From NCBI GenBank assembly GCA_035545015.1, contig DASZZD010000079.1, forward strand, positions 623 to 64,622: a stretch of 64,000 nt of DNA, written 5' to 3'. This document shows, piece by piece, positions 3,078-60,909 of this stretch. The notes below the pieces were generated by a model that was given only the letters and a program-made list of their open reading frames with translations, had not been told where the DNA came from and did not search any database. Position numbers and translations under genes: made by a program. The DNA comes from Phycisphaerae bacterium. GTDB lineage: Bacteria; Planctomycetota; Phycisphaerae; WQYP01. Numbering within the stretch: position 1 is the stretch's first letter; the number at the start of each line of letters is the position of its first letter.

Positions 3078-4184
3078 TCATTTGCCTTTGACGAAGAAGG
3101 ATTTGATGGATTCGTAGATGTCTTCCTTGGCGTTGACGCGGTTGGTGATGAGGTTGTCGCGGCCGGGGAGGAGGTCGTGGAGGACGTTGATGAAGTTGCC
3201 GGAGCCATAGGCGCTGGCGACCTGGCAGTAGCCGAAGAGATTGGCGGAGGGGAGGATGTGTTCCTGAAGGAAGCGGCAGCATTCGCGGGAGTCGGATTCG
3301 GAGCAGTTGTCGCCGTCGGAGAAGTGGAAGAGGTAGATGTTCCACTCGTTGGGATCGTAGTGGGCGTCGAGAAGCTGGCGGGCGCATTTGAAGGCGGAGG
3401 AGATTTTGGTGCCGCCATCTTCGCGCAGGTGGTAGAAGGTTTGTTTGTCGACTTCGCGGGCCTGGACATCGTGGACGATGTAGCGGGACTCGATGCCTTT
3501 GTAATTGCGGCGGAGCCAGGTGTCGATCCAGAAGGCTTCGATGCGGACGAGTTCTTTTTGCTCGTCACCCATGGAGCCGGAGACGTCCATCATGTAGACG
3601 ATGACGGCGTTGGATTGGGGGGCGAGGACTTCTTTCCAGGAGCGGAAGCGTTTGTCGTTTTTCACCGGGACGATAACGGGGTTGGTGGGGTTGTAGAGGC
3701 CGAGCATGATCTGGCGTTTGAGGGCTTCGCGGTAGGTGCGTTTGAAGTGTTTGAGGGACTCGGGGCCGACGCGGCGGATGCCGGAGTATTTGTCGCGGAC
3801 GGTGGTGATTTGTTTGCGGCCCTTGGGTTCGATGCGGGGGAGATGGAGCTCTTCGCCGAGGATATCGGCGAGTTCTTCGAGGGAGACGTCGACTTCCATG
3901 AGGTGCTGTCCGGGCTGATCGCCGCCCTGTTTGCCATTGCCCTGGCCGACGGTCTGACCTTCTTCGCCGTCGCCGGCGCCGACACCGCCGGAGTTATCGC
4001 CGTAGCGGAAGGTGGGGATTTCGATGCCGTGGACGGGGATGGAGATGAGGTGCTTGCCCTCTTTGCCGATGAGTTCGCCGCGGGTGAGGAATTTGCGGAG
4101 GTCGCCGCGGATGCGGCCTTTGACGATTTGTCGGAAGCGTTGGTGGTCTTGGTCGATCATGAGGGAACTCTTAAGTTGGCTCAA
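3078..4184 (-). CDS. yeaH: YeaH/YhbH family protein (DUF444), partner of PrkA
   Basis: Full-length match in style to the UPF0229/DUF444 family (…VYMMDVSGSMGDEQKELVRIEAF…FHFSDGDNCSESD…). Lies downstream of prkA on the same strand. Confidence 0.85.
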   Translation of the reverse strand: MSQLKSSLMIDQDHQRFRQIVKGRIRGDLRKFLTRGELIGKEGKHLISIPVHGIEIPTFRYGDNSGGVGAGDGEEGQTVGQGNGKQGGDQPGQHLMEVDVSLEELADILGEELHLPRIEPKGRKQITTVRDKYSGIRRVGPESLKHFKRTYREALKRQIMLGLYNPTNPVIVPVKNDKRFRSWKEVLAPQSNAVIVYMMDVSGSMGDEQKELVRIEAFWIDTWLRRNYKGIESRYIVHDVQAREVDKQTFYHLREDGGTKISSAFKCARQLLDAHYDPNEWNIYLFHFSDGDNCSESDSRECCRFLQEHILPSANLFGYCQVASAYGSGNFINVLHDLLPGRDNLITNRVNAKEDIYESIKSFFVKGK

Positions 4185-4220
4185 TACGTTCAGTACGACC
4201 GGTTCGGGCGTCGGTAAATT

Positions 4221-4796
4221 CTATGAAGCTTCCGGCCGCAAGTTGTGTGGAAATACCACGAGTGTTCGCTTCGTGGGCATTTTGGCCGAAATCGTTTGGA
4301 AGCCTTCGAGATCGGGAATGCTGGATAGCGCCTGTCCAAGTTCCTGGGTAGGAGAAGTTCCGACAGGTTGGCTTACAGAATCGAACGGCTGACGGGCGTA
4401 GTTCGCTCTCCAGTCACCCGTCATTTCCTGAGCGGTAGTCCGAAGCAGCGCGAGTTGCGAGGGTCTGGTGATGTCCGCAATGCTCTGGAGTTGAACGCGA
4501 ATAGGCAGAATGGACCAAGGACTCGCGGGATTGGAGATCAAGAAGGGTGGTTGGCCTGATAAGGAGAGCGGTGACCCAAGAATTGCGCCGACCTCCAGAA
4601 GCGCGACCTGGTGATCTTCCGCAAGATACAGGACCTCGAATTGAGGAAGGGCGGTGGCCCCTTCGTTGTAGCGGGAAGCAGCCAGCGCGGTATGTGAAGT
4701 TGCGAGTGGTGTTGACAGAAATGACGGGTGAAAAGCCCGGTACCACATACCTGTCAATGGCCCTCGCAGCAGAGAGGGGCACCCTCCAAGATTCAT
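4221..4796 (-). CDS. RES-domain toxin (Res/ParT/MbcT family NAD-targeting toxin candidate)
   Basis: WYRAFHP…SRYNEGATALPQFEVLYLAEDHQVALLEV matches the RES-domain core (R…E…S). Codon usage and GC differ from neighbouring host genes. The real start may be the internal MWYRAF. Confidence 0.7.
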   Translation of the reverse strand: MNLGGCPSLLRGPLTGMWYRAFHPSFLSTPLATSHTALAASRYNEGATALPQFEVLYLAEDHQVALLEVGAILGSPLSLSGQPPFLISNPASPWSILPIRVQLQSIADITRPSQLALLRTTAQEMTGDWRANYARQPFDSVSQPVGTSPTQELGQALSSIPDLEGFQTISAKMPTKRTLVVFPHNLRPEAS

Positions 4797-5005
4797 GTGA
4801 ACATTCCGTAACGAATGGAGCGAAGAACCAGCCGAACGAAGTCTTCACGTCCTTCTTCGAGCAATTCCTTGGCGGATTTTCCGTAGAAAACTGTATTGGG
4901 GGTGTCGAACCACAGGTCGGCATCCTGGATTAGTTCGCGGGCGTCGTCACGAACATCGGCGTGTTCTCCGGGGAGAAGTTTAGGTACTACAGCTTGCTGA
5001 GACAT
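4793..5005 (-). CDS. Xre-like/DUF2384 antitoxin (short, C-terminal domain only) paired with the RES toxin
   Basis: ADLWFDTPNTVFYGKSAKELLEEGREDFVRLVLRSIRYGMFT matches the DUF2384 (ParS/MbcA) C-terminal motif. 4-nt overlap with the RES gene. Atypical codons (cta, gta, aca, gga). Confidence 0.6.
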   Translation of the reverse strand: MSQQAVVPKLLPGEHADVRDDARELIQDADLWFDTPNTVFYGKSAKELLEEGREDFVRLVLRSIRYGMFT

Positions 5006-5008
5006 CGA

Positions 5009-7075
<2,067 letters not shown>

Positions 7076-11929: not shown

Positions 11930-13081
<1,152 letters not shown>

Positions 13082-34758: not shown

Positions 34759-36903
34759 TCAGCGCGTCGTGGCGGGTTCGAGCTTTGCGAGAGTTTCGTT
34801 GACTTTGGCGATGTCCTCGGGCGAGAGGCGTTTGGGTTCGTCGGGCGCGAGCTGGGCGTTGAAACGGAGGGCTTCGCGCAGGTAGCGGGCGCGCTCGGCG
34901 GGAGGCAGGTCGGAGGGCGGCAGCGCGAAGCGAAGCCGCACACGGGCGTTGGCGCGATCGAGCGTGAAAAGCCGGCGAATGTCATCGGCCACCGGCTGGC
35001 CGAGGCGCTGCTTCAGGAGGATGCGCTGATCGAGAAGGTCGGTGGCGCGAGGCGACCGGGCGAGCGCTTCATCGAGTGCGTGCAGGGCGCCGGCGTTGTC
35101 GCCGGACATCGCGGCGCGCAGGTAGGCGTATTCGGCGGGGGCGGGATCCCAGGGCATCGTGGCGTTGAGCGTGGGAATCCAGAGCGTGGCGGCAATGAAG
35201 ATCGCAGCGGCGCCCAACGCAATCGGCGGCGCAACGCGCGGCAGCTTTGATCGCGCGCGCCGGCCCGGGGCGGCGGCGCCGGCGAATCCCAGCAGAAACC
35301 AGAAAAGCATCGCCGCCGCGCCGGTCAGCACCGCCATGTTGATCTGGTCGTAAACGAACATCCCCAGCGCCCCCATGAGCCCGCCGATCGCCAGCGAGGC
35401 GCTCCGCGGCGGCGCGGATTCCATCAGAATAAAGGCGCCGGCTCCCGCGCATGCGGCAAGCAGCGCATAGAGGATCGCGAGATAAAGAAAGTAAACGTCA
35501 TACGGCCCCACGATTGCATAACGCAACATCCACCAGACGCCGCAAAACATCGCCGCGACCACCAGAACATTGGTGGACAGAATCGGCCGGGGCTCGGCGG
35601 TTTCATCAGGCAGAGCGAACGGTGCACGGGCGGCGGCGATCACGCTGCAGGCGATCAAGAGGGCCAGCAGCGCCGCCGCAGGAATTCCGAGTTCGGCCGC
35701 GGCGCGGACAAAATAGGAGTGCGGATCGCTGACATCCTCCGGAGCGGCGGGACGTTTGACGGACGTGTAATAGCTGCCGAAGTTATCCGGGCCGACGCCT
35801 GCGAGCGGATGATCGCGCACCAGCGTCGCGGCGGCCGTCCAATAGTACCAGCGGAAACGAAGGCTCTTGCCCGGCAGCGAATCATGCCGCACGCCATAGG
35901 CGACAACGGCCGCACCGCCAAGAAAAAACGCGCAGAACCCGGCAACGATCAGCACGCGGCGATAGCGGGCGAAAATCCCGTGCAGGCCGACGCCGGCGAT
36001 CGTGGCCACGGTGCAGATCACGACCATGCCCATGCCGCCATTGCTTTGCGTGAGCACGAGCATCCACGTTCCCAGCGCAAAAAGAATTGCCGAGGTGCTT
36101 ATGCCGATGATCGCGGCGATCGCGTTTTCAGTGCGCATCGCCGTGCGGAAGAACGAAACCGCCAGGCCGGCGGCCATCACCAGCAGCCCCACGAATGCCG
36201 CCGCCGTGACATTCGCCAGCGTGAGAAATCCTTCAAGCTCTCCGCCGTGGAGACGGGCTTCATACGCCGCCGCTTCCGGCGACCCCGGCGCAATGCCCTG
36301 GCTGCGGAGGATCTGATCGCGATTTTGCTCGAACGTGGCGATCGTCTCGGGCTGATCGACAAAGTGCTGGATCATCCCCTGCATGATCCAGGCGGCAAGA
36401 ATGGCGATGAAGAGCGCCGTCAGAAACTGCCGCGAGCGCCGGCCCGTCAGCGCAGGATGGCACAGCAGGCTGACGGTCCAGCCGGCGGCGAGAATCGCGA
36501 TGATGTCCGTCGAGCCGACCGCCGCCGCAAATCGATTGGCTGCGCGAAACGTGGAATTGAGCGCGCATCCGGCGATGGCCGCGATAATGAGCCACCGCAG
36601 GAAATGCTTCCACGTGATCAAATCAGCGGCGGCGGCAATCGCGGCGCCGGCGGCGGAGAGCAGCAGCGCGATCGTCGCGAAGCCCGTCGTGACGCCCGGG
36701 CCGACCTCCGGAAGCGCAAGATGGTGTTCAGGATCCGTCTGTGCGAGCAGCCGTTCCTGCTTTTGCGCCAGGCCTTCGCGCAGCGTCTCGGTCATCGTCA
36801 GACGCAGCGAGAGGACCAGCGCCAGCCCCGCGAGAACGACGAACGCCCAGGTGCGCAGCGGGCCGGTGATCGGCATGAATGTCGCAGGAGATTCCGGCGT
36901 CAT
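34759..36903 (-). CDS. O-antigen ligase (Wzy_C) family membrane protein with C-terminal TPR region
   Basis: Multi-TM body with RDHPLAGVGPDNFGSYY, the O-antigen ligase loop. The C-terminal soluble repeats are TPR-like. Confidence 0.75.
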   Translation of the reverse strand: MTPESPATFMPITGPLRTWAFVVLAGLALVLSLRLTMTETLREGLAQKQERLLAQTDPEHHLALPEVGPGVTTGFATIALLLSAAGAAIAAAADLITWKHFLRWLIIAAIAGCALNSTFRAANRFAAAVGSTDIIAILAAGWTVSLLCHPALTGRRSRQFLTALFIAILAAWIMQGMIQHFVDQPETIATFEQNRDQILRSQGIAPGSPEAAAYEARLHGGELEGFLTLANVTAAAFVGLLVMAAGLAVSFFRTAMRTENAIAAIIGISTSAILFALGTWMLVLTQSNGGMGMVVICTVATIAGVGLHGIFARYRRVLIVAGFCAFFLGGAAVVAYGVRHDSLPGKSLRFRWYYWTAAATLVRDHPLAGVGPDNFGSYYTSVKRPAAPEDVSDPHSYFVRAAAELGIPAAALLALLIACSVIAAARAPFALPDETAEPRPILSTNVLVVAAMFCGVWWMLRYAIVGPYDVYFLYLAILYALLAACAGAGAFILMESAPPRSASLAIGGLMGALGMFVYDQINMAVLTGAAAMLFWFLLGFAGAAAPGRRARSKLPRVAPPIALGAAAIFIAATLWIPTLNATMPWDPAPAEYAYLRAAMSGDNAGALHALDEALARSPRATDLLDQRILLKQRLGQPVADDIRRLFTLDRANARVRLRFALPPSDLPPAERARYLREALRFNAQLAPDEPKRLSPEDIAKVNETLAKLEPATTR

Positions 36904-38060
36904 CGGGTGTGCTCCCCGACGCGTTCAAGAACCGCGATGACCGTGAGCATCCCGAGGAGTTGCAGCGCCAGCAGCGCGGCCGACGTGGCGTCGCTGTGCA
37001 GCGCAAGCAGCGGCGCGGCGATGCCGGTCGCCAGCGTGACGCCATAAATGATCAACACCGCTGAGCGCGTCGAGAAACCGTGCCGCGTCAGGCGATGCGA
37101 GAAATGGTTGGTGTCGCCGGTCATCGGAGAGCGGCCCTTGAGCAGGCGAAGGACTGAAACGATCACCAGATCATAAAGCGGAACGGCCGTGACGAAGAGC
37201 GGCATCAGCACCGCGTAGGGCGCGCGCCCGGGTTGATAGTACGTCGTGCGGATCGTGAGCGCCGCGAGGATGAAGCCGAGGATCATCGAACCGCCGTCGC
37301 CCATGAAAATGGATGCGGGCGGAAAGTTGAAGCACAGAAATCCCAGAATGCTGCCCATCAACGTAAGGAGCAGGCCGGCGACGAACCATTGGCCGTTGAT
37401 GCAGGCGGCGATCAGAAAAACCGCGGCGCAGATGAACGCCACGCCGGCGGAAAGGCCATCCATGTTATCGAGGAAATTGAAGGCGTTCGTGAGCGCGACG
37501 ATCCACAGAACGGAACAGAGCACGGAGACGAAAAAGCCCGGCGTGGGAAAATTGCCGAGGAACGTGAGGACACGAAATGACCCGGCGCCGAATGATTCGC
37601 CGACAAAGACGAGCGCTGCGGCGATCGCGAGCTGCGCGAGGAGCTTGGGCCAGGGGTCGAGCGGCTTGCGATCATCGAGCAGGCCGAGGAGATGGATGCC
37701 GAATGTCGCCATGAGCAACAGCACGAGCAGCGGCGCATGGGCGCGCATGCCCGGAAGATGGAGAACGACATCGGGCAGATCGCGACCAAAAACCTGGAAT
37801 CGCGCCAAGTCGTGGCCATGTGTGAGGACAACAATGGCAATCAGCGCGATGACCAGTGGAATCGCAAATCCCCAGAAAATGCCAATGCCCCCATTGCGCG
37901 GCGTCGCAACGGTGTGCACCTTGCGCTGTCCCGGCGCGTCCATGAGCCCCAGCCGCCGCGCATAGCGGCGCGCCAGGGCGGTGCCGATAAGGCTGAGAAC
38001 AAAGGCCAGAACAAACAGGGCGGCGCCGCCGACGAGCATGGGGCGGAACCCTCCGATCAA
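36900..38060 (-). CDS. MraY/WecA-family undecaprenyl-phosphate sugar-phosphotransferase (GT4 class)
   Basis: …MDAPGQRKVHTVATPRNGGIGIF…NFLDNMDGL… are the PNPT family motifs. 4-nt overlap with the ligase gene. Confidence 0.85.
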   Translation of the reverse strand: MIGGFRPMLVGGAALFVLAFVLSLIGTALARRYARRLGLMDAPGQRKVHTVATPRNGGIGIFWGFAIPLVIALIAIVVLTHGHDLARFQVFGRDLPDVVLHLPGMRAHAPLLVLLLMATFGIHLLGLLDDRKPLDPWPKLLAQLAIAAALVFVGESFGAGSFRVLTFLGNFPTPGFFVSVLCSVLWIVALTNAFNFLDNMDGLSAGVAFICAAVFLIAACINGQWFVAGLLLTLMGSILGFLCFNFPPASIFMGDGGSMILGFILAALTIRTTYYQPGRAPYAVLMPLFVTAVPLYDLVIVSVLRLLKGRSPMTGDTNHFSHRLTRHGFSTRSAVLIIYGVTLATGIAAPLLALHSDATSAALLALQLLGMLTVIAVLERVGEHTR

Positions 38061-38063
38061 AAC

Positions 38064-38630
38064 TCAGCGGCCCGCGGTGATTCGCTGGAGCTGCTCAAGA
38101 TAGGCCGTGCGCGCCCGAACGAAAAACGCCCCCGCCTCGCGCGTCTGGTAGTCGGCGTACGTCCACGGCCAGGGCGTCCAGGCGTTCTGCTGCCAGTGCA
38201 ACGTGACCTCGCCGTAAATTCCCTCGGCAATGTACACCCGATGCGAATGATCCTTGGTGGTCGCCAGGATCACCTTGTAGCGGTGTACGTAACCGGGATC
38301 GATGTTGATCGGGCGGGCGACCGCTCCACCGCTGCGCGGCGCGGCGAACTGTCGCGCCAGCAGCGTCTCGGCCATGTTCGTTTCCAGCTTGCACTTCGCC
38401 AGGTGTTCGGGATTGAACAGCGCCTCGAAACGCACCCATTGCCGCAGCAGATGCGGCCCCATTTCCCCGGCGTAATAATCGGTGAAGGTGAATGGCAGAA
38501 TTTCGGAGGCGTCATCGATCCGGCCATACCATTGCGCCAATTCCGCGCGCGCCGCGGCGAGCTGGTCTTCCGAACCGGCGAGCAGGCCGGCAAATCGGCA
38601 CACGGGCATCGGGGACGTCGGGACGGCCAT
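38064..38630 (-). CDS. DUF4416 family protein
   Basis: ILPFTFTDYYAGEMG…INIDPGY…TKDHSHRVYIAEGIYGEVTL matches the DUF4416 consensus. Confidence 0.7.
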   Translation of the reverse strand: MAVPTSPMPVCRFAGLLAGSEDQLAAARAELAQWYGRIDDASEILPFTFTDYYAGEMGPHLLRQWVRFEALFNPEHLAKCKLETNMAETLLARQFAAPRSGGAVARPINIDPGYVHRYKVILATTKDHSHRVYIAEGIYGEVTLHWQQNAWTPWPWTYADYQTREAGAFFVRARTAYLEQLQRITAGR

Positions 38631-59577: not shown

Positions 59578-60909
59578 ATGGGGATTTTGGGAATGATGCG
59601 GAATTCGGCGGGGCGGGTGGTGCGGCGGCATTTGGGGGGGAGGGGGGAGGGGATGCGGGTGAGGGAGCGGCGGTTTCCGGCGCGGGTGCGGGCGGATTTG
59701 CAGCGGGGGATGGAGGCGGTGGGGAAGGAGATGGGGGCGGCGTTGCGGTATGGGGTGACTTCGCGGTATGGGCAGGCGGTGACGTTGTCGGAGGTGGTGC
59801 AGGGGGGAATGATGGGGCCGGCGCTGGGGCCGGTGGTGTATGAGGATGTGGATGTGGGGGAGGCGGAGGCGGTGCGGTGTCCGAAGAGCGGGTTGTGGTT
59901 GGGGGAGTGGGAGGGGACGCGGTATGTGGTGCTGGTGTCGCAGGGGGAGCCGCCGTATTCGGCGCTGGGGACGACGGTGCAGGTGGGGACGGTGGGGGCG
60001 AGAGGGGAGGAGGTGTGCGGGCGGGTGATGCGGGTGCTGGAGGAGGTGGTGAAGAAGTCGCCGAGCTATCGAGGGAAGGTGTTGTCGCTGGAGGCTGGGG
60101 AGGGGTATTCGGGTCAGGGGCAGGGGGTGAAGGTGCATCGGCTACGGGAGGTGAAGCGGGAGGAGGTGATTTTGCCGGCGGCGACGCTGGCGTTGTTGGA
60201 GCGGAACGTGATGGGGTTTGTGGTGCGGCGGGAGAAGATTGGGGCGATGGGACAATCGCGGAAGAAGGGGTTGCTGTTTCACGGGCGACCGGGGACGGGC
60301 AAGACGCACACGATACATTATTTGGCGCGGGCGCTGGCGGGGCATACGACGTTGATCGTGACGGCGGAGCAGGTGGGATTGCTGCCGGAGTACATGACGC
60401 TGGCGCGGCTGCTGCAGCCGAGCATGGTGGTGATCGAGGATGCGGATTTGATTGCGCGGGAGCGATCGCGGATGGCGAGCGCATGCGAGGAGGTGATGTT
60501 GAATCGGCTGCTGAACGAGATGGACGGGTTGAAGGAGGATGCGGATGTGATTTTTGTGTTGACGACGAATCGTCCGGAGGCGCTGGAGGAGGCATTGACG
60601 GCGCGGCCGGGGCGGGTGGACCAAGCGGTGGAATTTCCGCTGCCGGACGAGGCGGGGCGGGAGAAGCTGGTGCGATTGTATGCGGGGAAGGCGGCGATGA
60701 CGGAGGAGGTGGTGAAGGAAACGGTGGAGCGGACGGAGGGGGTGAGCGCGGCGTTCATTAAGGAGTTGATGCGGCGGGCGGTGCAGTTTCACCTGGAGCG
60801 GGAGGAGACGGGGCGGATTGATGGGGAGGATGTGCGTGGGGCGATTGAGGAGATGGTGGTGGGAGGCGGGGCGGTGAATCGGCGGTTGATGGGGGTGGGG
60901 CAGCGGTAA
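59578..60909 (+). CDS. AAA+ ATPase (classic FtsH/Cdc48-like ATPase module) with uncharacterised ~230-aa N-terminal domain
   Basis: Walker A GRPGTGKTHT, Walker B VVIEDADL, SRH NRPEALEEALTARPGRVDQAVEFPLP. No protease domain. Confidence 0.85.
   Translation: MGILGMMRNSAGRVVRRHLGGRGEGMRVRERRFPARVRADLQRGMEAVGKEMGAALRYGVTSRYGQAVTLSEVVQGGMMGPALGPVVYEDVDVGEAEAVRCPKSGLWLGEWEGTRYVVLVSQGEPPYSALGTTVQVGTVGARGEEVCGRVMRVLEEVVKKSPSYRGKVLSLEAGEGYSGQGQGVKVHRLREVKREEVILPAATLALLERNVMGFVVRREKIGAMGQSRKKGLLFHGRPGTGKTHTIHYLARALAGHTTLIVTAEQVGLLPEYMTLARLLQPSMVVIEDADLIARERSRMASACEEVMLNRLLNEMDGLKEDADVIFVLTTNRPEALEEALTARPGRVDQAVEFPLPDEAGREKLVRLYAGKAAMTEEVVKETVERTEGVSAAFIKELMRRAVQFHLEREETGRIDGEDVRGAIEEMVVGGGAVNRRLMGVGQR

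Follow-up and report, generated by a model that had tools for sequence, protein, structure and literature searches.

Why should a toxin-antitoxin (TA) gene pair sit between prkA and yeaH, two genes of a known stress operon, and how long has it been there? The question is raised by a 64,000-nucleotide stretch of a Phycisphaerae bacterium (contig DASZZD010000079.1 of assembly GCA_035545015.1), called the window hereafter and used for all coordinates below, the minus strand of which carries every gene of a prkA-antitoxin-toxin-yeaH locus. Within it, an antitoxin gene (4793..5005; 70 amino acids, aa) is followed by a RES-domain toxin gene (4221..4796; 191 aa as present) with a frame that is broken near the 3' end. 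Profile searches, structure modelling and comparison with related loci showed an ordinary RES/Xre-C family member in an unusual, conserved operon context, and we regard it with reasonable confidence as an old, selected, operon-embedded minimal cassette, the toxin of which is probably impaired in this genome.

The toxin matched the Pfam RES family PF08808 with E=1.4e-13 and 51.6 bits (gathering cutoff 23.2) over profile positions 2-138 of 157. Its relatives in protein databases carry the label "RES family NAD+ phosphorylase", and the nearest of them, at 97% identity, comes from a Phycisphaerae metagenome-assembled genome (MAG). The subfamily is of moderate size, with 227 clusters among 1.84 billion representative proteins when the threshold is E<=1e-30 and 1,223 when it is E<=1e-3. 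A single-sequence search of the PDB returned no meaningful match, so a profile search was needed, in which MbcT was the only match among PDB sequences and toxin residues R42, Y57 and E68 aligned with MbcT R47, Y58 and E69. In a 40-sequence alignment, R20, R42, Y57, E68, Q123-E-x-T-G-D-W129 and S170 are invariant and all present in the window protein; the single residues R20, R42, Y57, E68 and S170 are likewise invariant in a 66-sequence family alignment. The equivalents of MbcT R27, R47, Y58, E69 and S126 are thereby invariant in the toxin family and present in the window copy, and R27, R47 and Y58 are essential for the toxicity of MbcT (PMC6436930). Complementarily, we modelled P0002, an 84%-identical orthologue, with AlphaFold2 (predicted local distance difference test score, pLDDT, 94.1). 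The 12 best Foldseek matches of this model in the PDB were all RES toxins, with MbcT ranking best and NatT, RES-Pp, ParT and VPA0770 among the others. Separately, a perfect 14-nucleotide (nt) inverted repeat occurs within the toxin gene (4414-4427 / 4718-4731), one arm coding for part of the invariant QE(M)TGDW; as it carries two mismatches in the related MAG GCA_035548175.1 (L002), we took it to be probably a chance occurrence.

The antitoxin alone matched PF09722 (Xre_MbcA_ParS_C) with E=2.2e-4 and 21.6 bits, slightly below the cutoff of 24.5. We therefore rested its assignment on the family: of 30 antitoxins that accompany toxins of this RES subfamily, the window one included, 29 matched PF09722 (best E=4.7e-11), and the antitoxin family profile matched the C-termini of VPA0769 (2e-6), MbcA (2e-5), ParS (6e-5) and P. 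putida Xre (5e-3) in the PDB, which together make the assignment secure at the family level. By these profile matches, toxin and antitoxin are a type II TA cassette of the RES / Xre-MbcA-ParS family (COG5654-COG5642), and the MbcTA/ParST-type pair proposed by an earlier sequence-only reading of this DNA was borne out at the family level by PF08808 and PF09722. No NCBIfam model matched the toxin or the antitoxin protein, and PADLOC defence-system models run against the four locus proteins gave nothing above noise.

The same reading had remarked that the antitoxin lacks the helix-turn-helix (HTH) part usual in such proteins. This held true, the 70 aa consisting of an acidic N-terminal helix region and the Xre/MbcA/ParS C-terminal toxin-binding domain, but it proved to be the rule of the whole RES subfamily and not peculiar to the window copy. 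HTH families gave zero matches among the 30 subfamily antitoxins, window one included. In a sample of 80 metagenome loci encoding the same RES subfamily (44-61% identity), nearly all had an upstream open reading frame (ORF) with the motif W-L-x-T-P-N-x-x-L-G-G-x-x-P-x-D-L-I-G-T…L-R-x-L-I-R-A-I-K-H-G-M-x-T/S; antitoxin and toxin genes overlapped by 4 nt in 65 of 75 loci, and the upstream ORF could not exceed 80 aa in 36 of the 63 complete ones. Judged from this sample, the short, HTH-less antitoxin is the norm of the subfamily, not a truncation, and its typical form is a minimal protein of 65-78 aa, essentially the toxin-binding domain alone. In some loci (L119, L106, L145, L154, L156, L131 and L150) the antitoxin domain ends a much longer upstream ORF of about 220-346 aa; these may be N-terminal domain fusions or over-extended ORFs in GC-rich DNA.

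Having assigned both genes, we turned to the age of the insertion. The sequence-only reading had called the pair a recent acquisition, and this claim did not survive comparison with relatives. The order prkA-antitoxin-toxin-yeaH, with equally tight junctions, recurred in three further lineages: the NCBI MAG L002 (identity to the window: PrkA 99%, YeaH 98%, toxin 97%, antitoxin 100%), five JGI metagenome contigs, L005-L009 (PrkA 97%, YeaH 89%, toxin 84%, antitoxin 84%), and the JGI and Logan contigs L090/L091 (PrkA 96%, YeaH 90%, toxin 70%, antitoxin 64%). Misassembly was ruled out, the same junctions being present in eight other contigs from an NCBI MAG, JGI metagenomes and Logan. Between the window and L005, synonymous divergence (dS, by the Nei-Gojobori method, as was nonsynonymous divergence, dN) amounted to 1.39 for prkA, 1.09 for yeaH, 1.80 for the antitoxin and 2.25 for the toxin, with dN/dS (omega) values of 0.027, 0.064, 0.045 and 0.041, respectively; toxin omega was 0.11 between the window and L090. 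Against L002, dS was 0.155 for prkA, 0.157 for yeaH, 0.120 for the toxin and 0 for the antitoxin. Synonymous sites are thus saturated between lineages, in the TA genes and their flanks alike, while dN/dS across the TA genes stays at about 0.04-0.1. Because the cassette has diverged no less than its flanks and is under purifying selection, it is best read as an old, retained insertion and not as a recent arrival.

The distribution of the arrangement is narrow. Among the matches listed, the cassette was present in none of 80 prkA loci of other species (PrkA 66-82% identical), the nearest cassette-free loci belonging to Phycisphaerae/Tepidisphaerales MAGs; conversely, prkA or yeaH adjoined none of 80 other metagenome loci of the RES subfamily. 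On this comparison, the insertion is restricted to a narrow Phycisphaerae clade. We propose that the cassette would have inserted once, exactly between the prkA stop and the yeaH start, in the ancestor of this clade, and would have been inherited vertically under purifying selection thereafter.

What, then, of its foreign look? The sequence-only reading had described a much lower GC content and codons foreign to the host. The first part stood only in part: total GC is just slightly lower than in the flanks (toxin 0.562 and antitoxin 0.516 versus 0.577 and 0.593; window 0.631), and the marked difference is that at third codon positions (GC3 of 0.57 and 0.51, respectively, versus 0.81). The cytosine fraction at these positions (C3) is 0.29 in the toxin and 0.37 in the antitoxin, compared with 0.69-0.72 in the flanks, where the corresponding thymine fraction (T3) is about 0.05. 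In windows of 30 codons, crossing the prkA/antitoxin border lowers C3 from 0.73 to 0.37, and crossing the toxin/yeaH border raises it from 0.30 to 0.73, so that the composition break coincides exactly with the cassette gene borders. The foreign-looking codon use was confirmed. Measured against 4,784 codons from 11 same-strand host genes, 43 of 261 cassette codons are host-rare (<2 per 1000), as opposed to 1.8% of the host-set codons, and AGA has zero uses in the host set. Comparing the junction with that of relatives, as the sequence-only reading had suggested, gave a divided answer: the pair is a conserved part of the operon, but its composition is not host-like and remains atypical in every lineage with the arrangement, including L005 and L090 (PrkA 96-97% identical), where the flanks are far less biased and third-position bias is much weaker than in the window.

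The host bias itself is informative here. In Pfam-verified genes, to which we restricted this analysis because C3- or GC3-based gene calling is confounded by antisense shadow frames, third-position G/C asymmetry is extremely strong and tracks the DNA strand regardless of which way a gene is oriented. On the minus strand, genes lying in 1-36 kb and 53.6-64 kb have a C3 of 0.6-0.82, and plus-strand genes in the same segments are rich in third-position G (G3), with values of 0.59 for the GAPDH gene (11939-13081) and 0.81 for an AAA ATPase gene (59578-60909). In about 40-53.6 kb the polarity is flipped, with switches near 38-40 kb and about 53.6 kb, and the GC skew of 4-kb bins peaks at +0.49 and -0.36. 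As an aside, two skew sign changes inside 15 kb suggest an inversion. A minus-strand block at 34759-38630, which includes a Wzy_C O-antigen-ligase-like gene, has balanced values unlike its neighbours (C3 0.38-0.46, G3 0.32-0.43); it may be a skew transition zone or a compositionally distinct island.

A bias that follows the strand hints at a mutational origin, and mutation of that kind should have reshaped a long-resident cassette as well. This is one motive for considering a recent import or replacement in the window/L002 lineage, by homologous recombination through the prkA and yeaH flanks from a cassette-bearing relative. Such an event would account for a cassette that has not adopted the strand-specific third-position bias and for the razor-sharp break at the gene borders. 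It would also fit a 370-nt identical run between the window and L002 (4650-5020), which starts in the end of prkA, covers the antitoxin gene completely and extends 145 nt into the toxin gene; no longer identical run occurs in the 8.9 kb that were aligned, the genes otherwise differing by about 3-4%. However, the composition of the cassette is just as atypical in L005 and L090, pointing to a persistent property and not a transient one; toxin dS between the window and L002 (0.12) is close to the flank value (0.155); no donor-like sequence was found; and the junction positions are identical in all lineages. We consider a recent import very improbable. For the cassette as an old resident, the odd composition could reflect a synonymous-site constraint of its own or occasional replacement through recombination; likewise, the 370-nt tract could be a recombination tract or the product of constraint at the nucleotide level.

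How is a pair with no HTH domain expressed in this position? By their profile and family matches, the flanks are clear orthologues of known stress-operon genes. prkA (5009..7075, minus strand) encodes 688 aa with AAA+ and PrkA C-terminal domains (Pfam AAA_PrkA E=3.1e-91, PrkA E=1.4e-83), matches the NCBIfam PrkA family and is 99% identical to the L002 gene, which is also called at 688 aa. yeaH (DUF444; 3078..4160, minus strand) encodes 360 aa from an ATG at 4160 (PF04285 E=2.1e-84; NCBIfam NF003711, 561 bits), has the same length in L002 and is the last gene of the unit. The two genes lie 848 nt apart, and the cassette fills the gap. Only 3 nt separate the prkA stop (TAA, 5011-5009) from the antitoxin ATG, for which a GGAG Shine-Dalgarno-like motif sits within the final prkA codons; antitoxin stop and toxin start share ATGA at 4796-4793; and the ancestral toxin stop lies 10 nt upstream of the yeaH ATG. 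The placement of the pair between prkA and yeaH on the same strand, with its 4-nt overlap, was therefore as first described, and, given these spacings, transcription to yeaH must indeed cross the TA pair. Scanning the minus strand between 2900 and 7600 revealed no sigma-70-like promoter and no terminator-like site, the five terminator-like sites of this region all being on the plus strand and at chance level. The sigma-54 consensus TGGCAC-N5-TTGCW had 22 matches with <=2 mismatches where 26.6 were expected, none of them upstream of prkA. As there is almost no intergenic space and no DNA-binding domain, the cassette most likely has no autoregulated promoter, and gene spacing makes it most likely that the pair is co-transcribed with prkA-yeaH.

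We propose that antitoxin and toxin would be genes 2 and 3 of a prkA-antitoxin-toxin-yeaH transcript, the antitoxin being translated from the GGAG-preceded ATG right after the prkA stop and the toxin by translational coupling, which would set the toxin:antitoxin stoichiometry. By analogy with MbcA-MbcT (PMC6436930), we expect the NAD+ cleft of the toxin to be blocked by the conserved C-terminal end of the antitoxin (…R-Y-G-M-F-T), and free toxin would, by homology, consume NAD+ or transfer from it. RES toxins comprise phosphorylases, an ADP-ribosyltransferase and a glycohydrolase (PMC12457610); by structural analogy, the closest match is MbcT, an NAD+ phosphorylase.

The surroundings of the junction differ among relatives. 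In the 80 other prkA loci, among the matches listed, the prkA-yeaH gap is mostly about 20-150 nt, and inserts of 0.5-2.6 kb occupy it in L011, L012, L013, L017, L028, L051, L063, L082 and L088. These include a gene for a 23S_rRNA_IVP four-helix bundle (L017), a CitMHS transporter (L028), a small membrane protein (L012, L051) and related, unannotated ORFs of roughly 70 aa, present in two copies in L013 and one in L051; most inserts have no Pfam match. This variety suggests that the prkA-yeaH junction is a permissive insertion site. Downstream of yeaH, spoVR follows directly in seven of eight relatives tested (a set including L011, L012, L016, L027, L054, L070 and L073). The absence of spoVR after yeaH, noted in the sequence-only reading, was confirmed: the next gene is divergently oriented and is not spoVR, and no SpoVR-like sequence was found in the 64-kb window, L002 or L005. 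In L005, the position after yeaH where relatives have spoVR carries a Phd/YefM-type antitoxin gene (L005:2802-2963; PF02604, E=4e-7), cut by the contig end.

Beyond anything the sequence-only reading had observed, the toxin gene of the window is frameshifted. Aligning the window DNA with L002 and L005 revealed a one-base deletion at column 795, from TTGCGGGCCGG to TTGC-GGCCGG, at 4236..4237 on the minus strand (GG versus GGG in L002). The deletion shifts the frame after codon 187 and leads to a premature TAG at 4223-4221, giving 191 aa instead of 208. In the DNA alignment, an out-of-frame remnant of the ancestral C-terminus, GSFIEFTDARTGRTERIEPT, is still readable (4171..4235) up to the stop TAA at 4173-4171. 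The lost segment, GSFIEF.DARTGRTERIEP, is conserved across family alignments, where the C-terminal block reads 'PGSxVxFxDxxTGxxHxIP', and forms two beta-strands (191-195 and 202-205) in the AlphaFold2 model, with a pLDDT of about 95-97 for the block. The window protein consequently does not comprise a complete RES domain, its C-terminal strands being absent. With two conserved strands lost, the toxin is probably crippled, that is, attenuated or dead, next to an intact antitoxin. The identical deletion is present in an independent Logan contig (L001; 100% identical over 3842-5054), and the toxin is intact, at 208 or 213 aa, in L002, L005-L009 and L090/L091.

A disabled toxin beside an untouched antitoxin is the order of decay expected of a purely selfish addiction cassette, sitting in a permissive spot, without a role for the host, kept only since loss of the antitoxin is lethal, and now decaying from the toxin onwards. 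The 100% conservation of the antitoxin relative to L002 fits this explanation, as do the atypical codon composition in all lineages, the variable prkA-yeaH junction of related genomes and the second antitoxin gene, of the Phd/YefM type, after yeaH in L005; moreover, chromosomal TA modules of P. putida were reported to be 'rather selfish than beneficial' (PMC7280312). That the toxin is under strong purifying selection (omega 0.04-0.11), in turn, is unexpected for a benefit-free, vertically inherited module, and the toxin is intact in all seven other contigs with the arrangement (three lineages). Nor did the surroundings of the cassette betray mobility: we found no flanking repeats, tRNA or integrase, no target-site duplication and no terminal inverted repeats, and an Rfam scan of the whole window together with a tRNA scan gave no riboswitch, leader or tRNA integration site. 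We hold the selfish explanation to be unlikely.

At the opposite extreme, RES toxin and minimal antitoxin could be a domesticated effector, a working part of the PrkA/YeaH starvation pathway, in which PrkA or a downstream signal would remove the antitoxin in prolonged stress, so that the toxin lowers NAD+ and the cell enters dormancy. The operon position is kept across lineages with saturated dS, the omega of both TA genes (about 0.04) is as low as that of yeaH (0.064), and expression of a pair without an autoregulatory domain or promoter space of its own would be slaved to prkA. Reports from other bacteria point the same way: PrkA of B. subtilis was described as an ATP-dependent protease resembling Lon (PMC9512850); in E. 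coli, yeaG influences both the metabolic heterogeneity seen under nitrogen starvation and the transcription of TA genes (PMC4664914); in P. aeruginosa, RES toxins cause persisters to form (PMC11535050); and Legionella has a core-genome RES-Xre pair with a non-canonical function (PMC12457610). Yet the arrangement is confined to one narrow clade, with 0/80 other prkA loci (among the matches listed) and 0/80 other subfamily loci sharing it; the frameshift makes the toxin dispensable at least in the window genome; the gap takes unrelated small genes in other Phycisphaerae, as befits a permissive site rather than a partnership; and an interaction between PrkA and the antitoxin is hypothetical. Since the cassette is clade-confined, unrelated genes occupy the junction elsewhere and this genome can do without the toxin, we rate a functional link to PrkA as quite unlikely, and lend equally little credence to the pair being a clade-specific output module of the pathway instead of a set of passengers. 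Were that the case, the TA pair would be transcribed only with prkA, selected non-host codons would hold translation low in place of the missing transcriptional autoregulation, and the Lon-like PrkA ATPase/protease or a downstream factor would strip the antitoxin, NAD+ depletion then enforcing dormancy.

Several points weigh against our preferred interpretation of an old, selected cassette with an impaired toxin. Its third positions are still far from those of the flanks in all lineages, which is unexpected if the host bias is purely mutational, and recurrent replacement of the cassette by recombination from relatives fits the atypical composition; the 370-nt tract would belong on this side if it stems from recombination. 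Regarding the impairment, the effect of losing the C-terminal hairpin rests on conservation and a model, and the GG could in principle be a sequencing or assembly error shared at a G-run. Toxicity, neutralisation and NAD+ chemistry rest on homology at about 15% identity to solved structures. Finally, an internal promoter may lie in the prkA 3' end, and Planctomycetota promoters are poorly defined.

Together, these findings carry a general caution: atypical codon composition is no proof of recent transfer, as a foreign-looking cassette can be syntenic across lineages and under purifying selection. The locus would also illustrate, in nature, a TA module that relies on a host stress operon to be expressed, its antitoxin having no DNA-binding domain and its genes leaving no room for a promoter. 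If the intact form is toxic and responsive to PrkA, it would offer a handle on two poorly understood matters, PrkA/YeaH function and the control of minimal RES antitoxins; otherwise, it is one more chromosomal TA module, with its toxin disabled here.

Among known systems, the flanks find their counterpart in E. coli yeaGH, orthologues forming a single operon that responds by induction to nitrogen starvation and further stresses (PMC4664914). Unlike in the yeaG-yeaH or prkA-yhbH(-spoVR) operon, the two genes are split by the cassette here, and spoVR is absent from the window. The cassette itself most resembles MbcT-MbcA of M. tuberculosis (Rv1989c-Rv1990c, 6FKG), MbcT being the PDB structure closest to the toxin model (Foldseek E=7e-7, target TM score 0.67-0.69). 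There, too, the antitoxin gene lies upstream of the toxin gene, and our antitoxin profile aligns to residues 57-114 of MbcA, the C-terminus of which blocks the active site (PMC6436930). However, the sequences share only about 15% identity, the toxin exceeds MbcT by about 20 aa and carries the invariant QELTGDW, the antitoxin has 70 aa instead of the 113 aa of MbcA, the cassette has no promoter region of its own, and the window toxin is truncated. P. putida Xre-RES (6GW6, 9R35), VPA0770-VPA0769 and NatR-NatT likewise pair a RES-fold toxin with a DUF2384 / Xre_MbcA_ParS_C antitoxin domain, but repress their own promoters as 4:2 DNA-binding complexes (PMC12204516), whereas the cassette described here has neither an HTH domain nor an upstream intergenic region to bind. 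ParS-ParT of Sphingobium (6D0H) also combines a RES-fold toxin with a COG5642 antitoxin, and our antitoxin profile matches ParS 31-71; its fold match is weaker than that of MbcT, and ParT is, according to the summary in PMC12457610, an ADP-ribosyltransferase acting on Prs. A parallel in evolutionary terms is GndR-GndX of Legionella pneumophila, which differs in that GndX retains its HTH domain (PMC12457610) and GndRX occupies a locus of its own, outside stress operons. It is nonetheless a vertically conserved RES-Xre pair, part of the core genome there as ours is clade-wide here (PMC12457610), and by analogy with GndR-GndX, such vertical conservation suggests a use at the level of the host.

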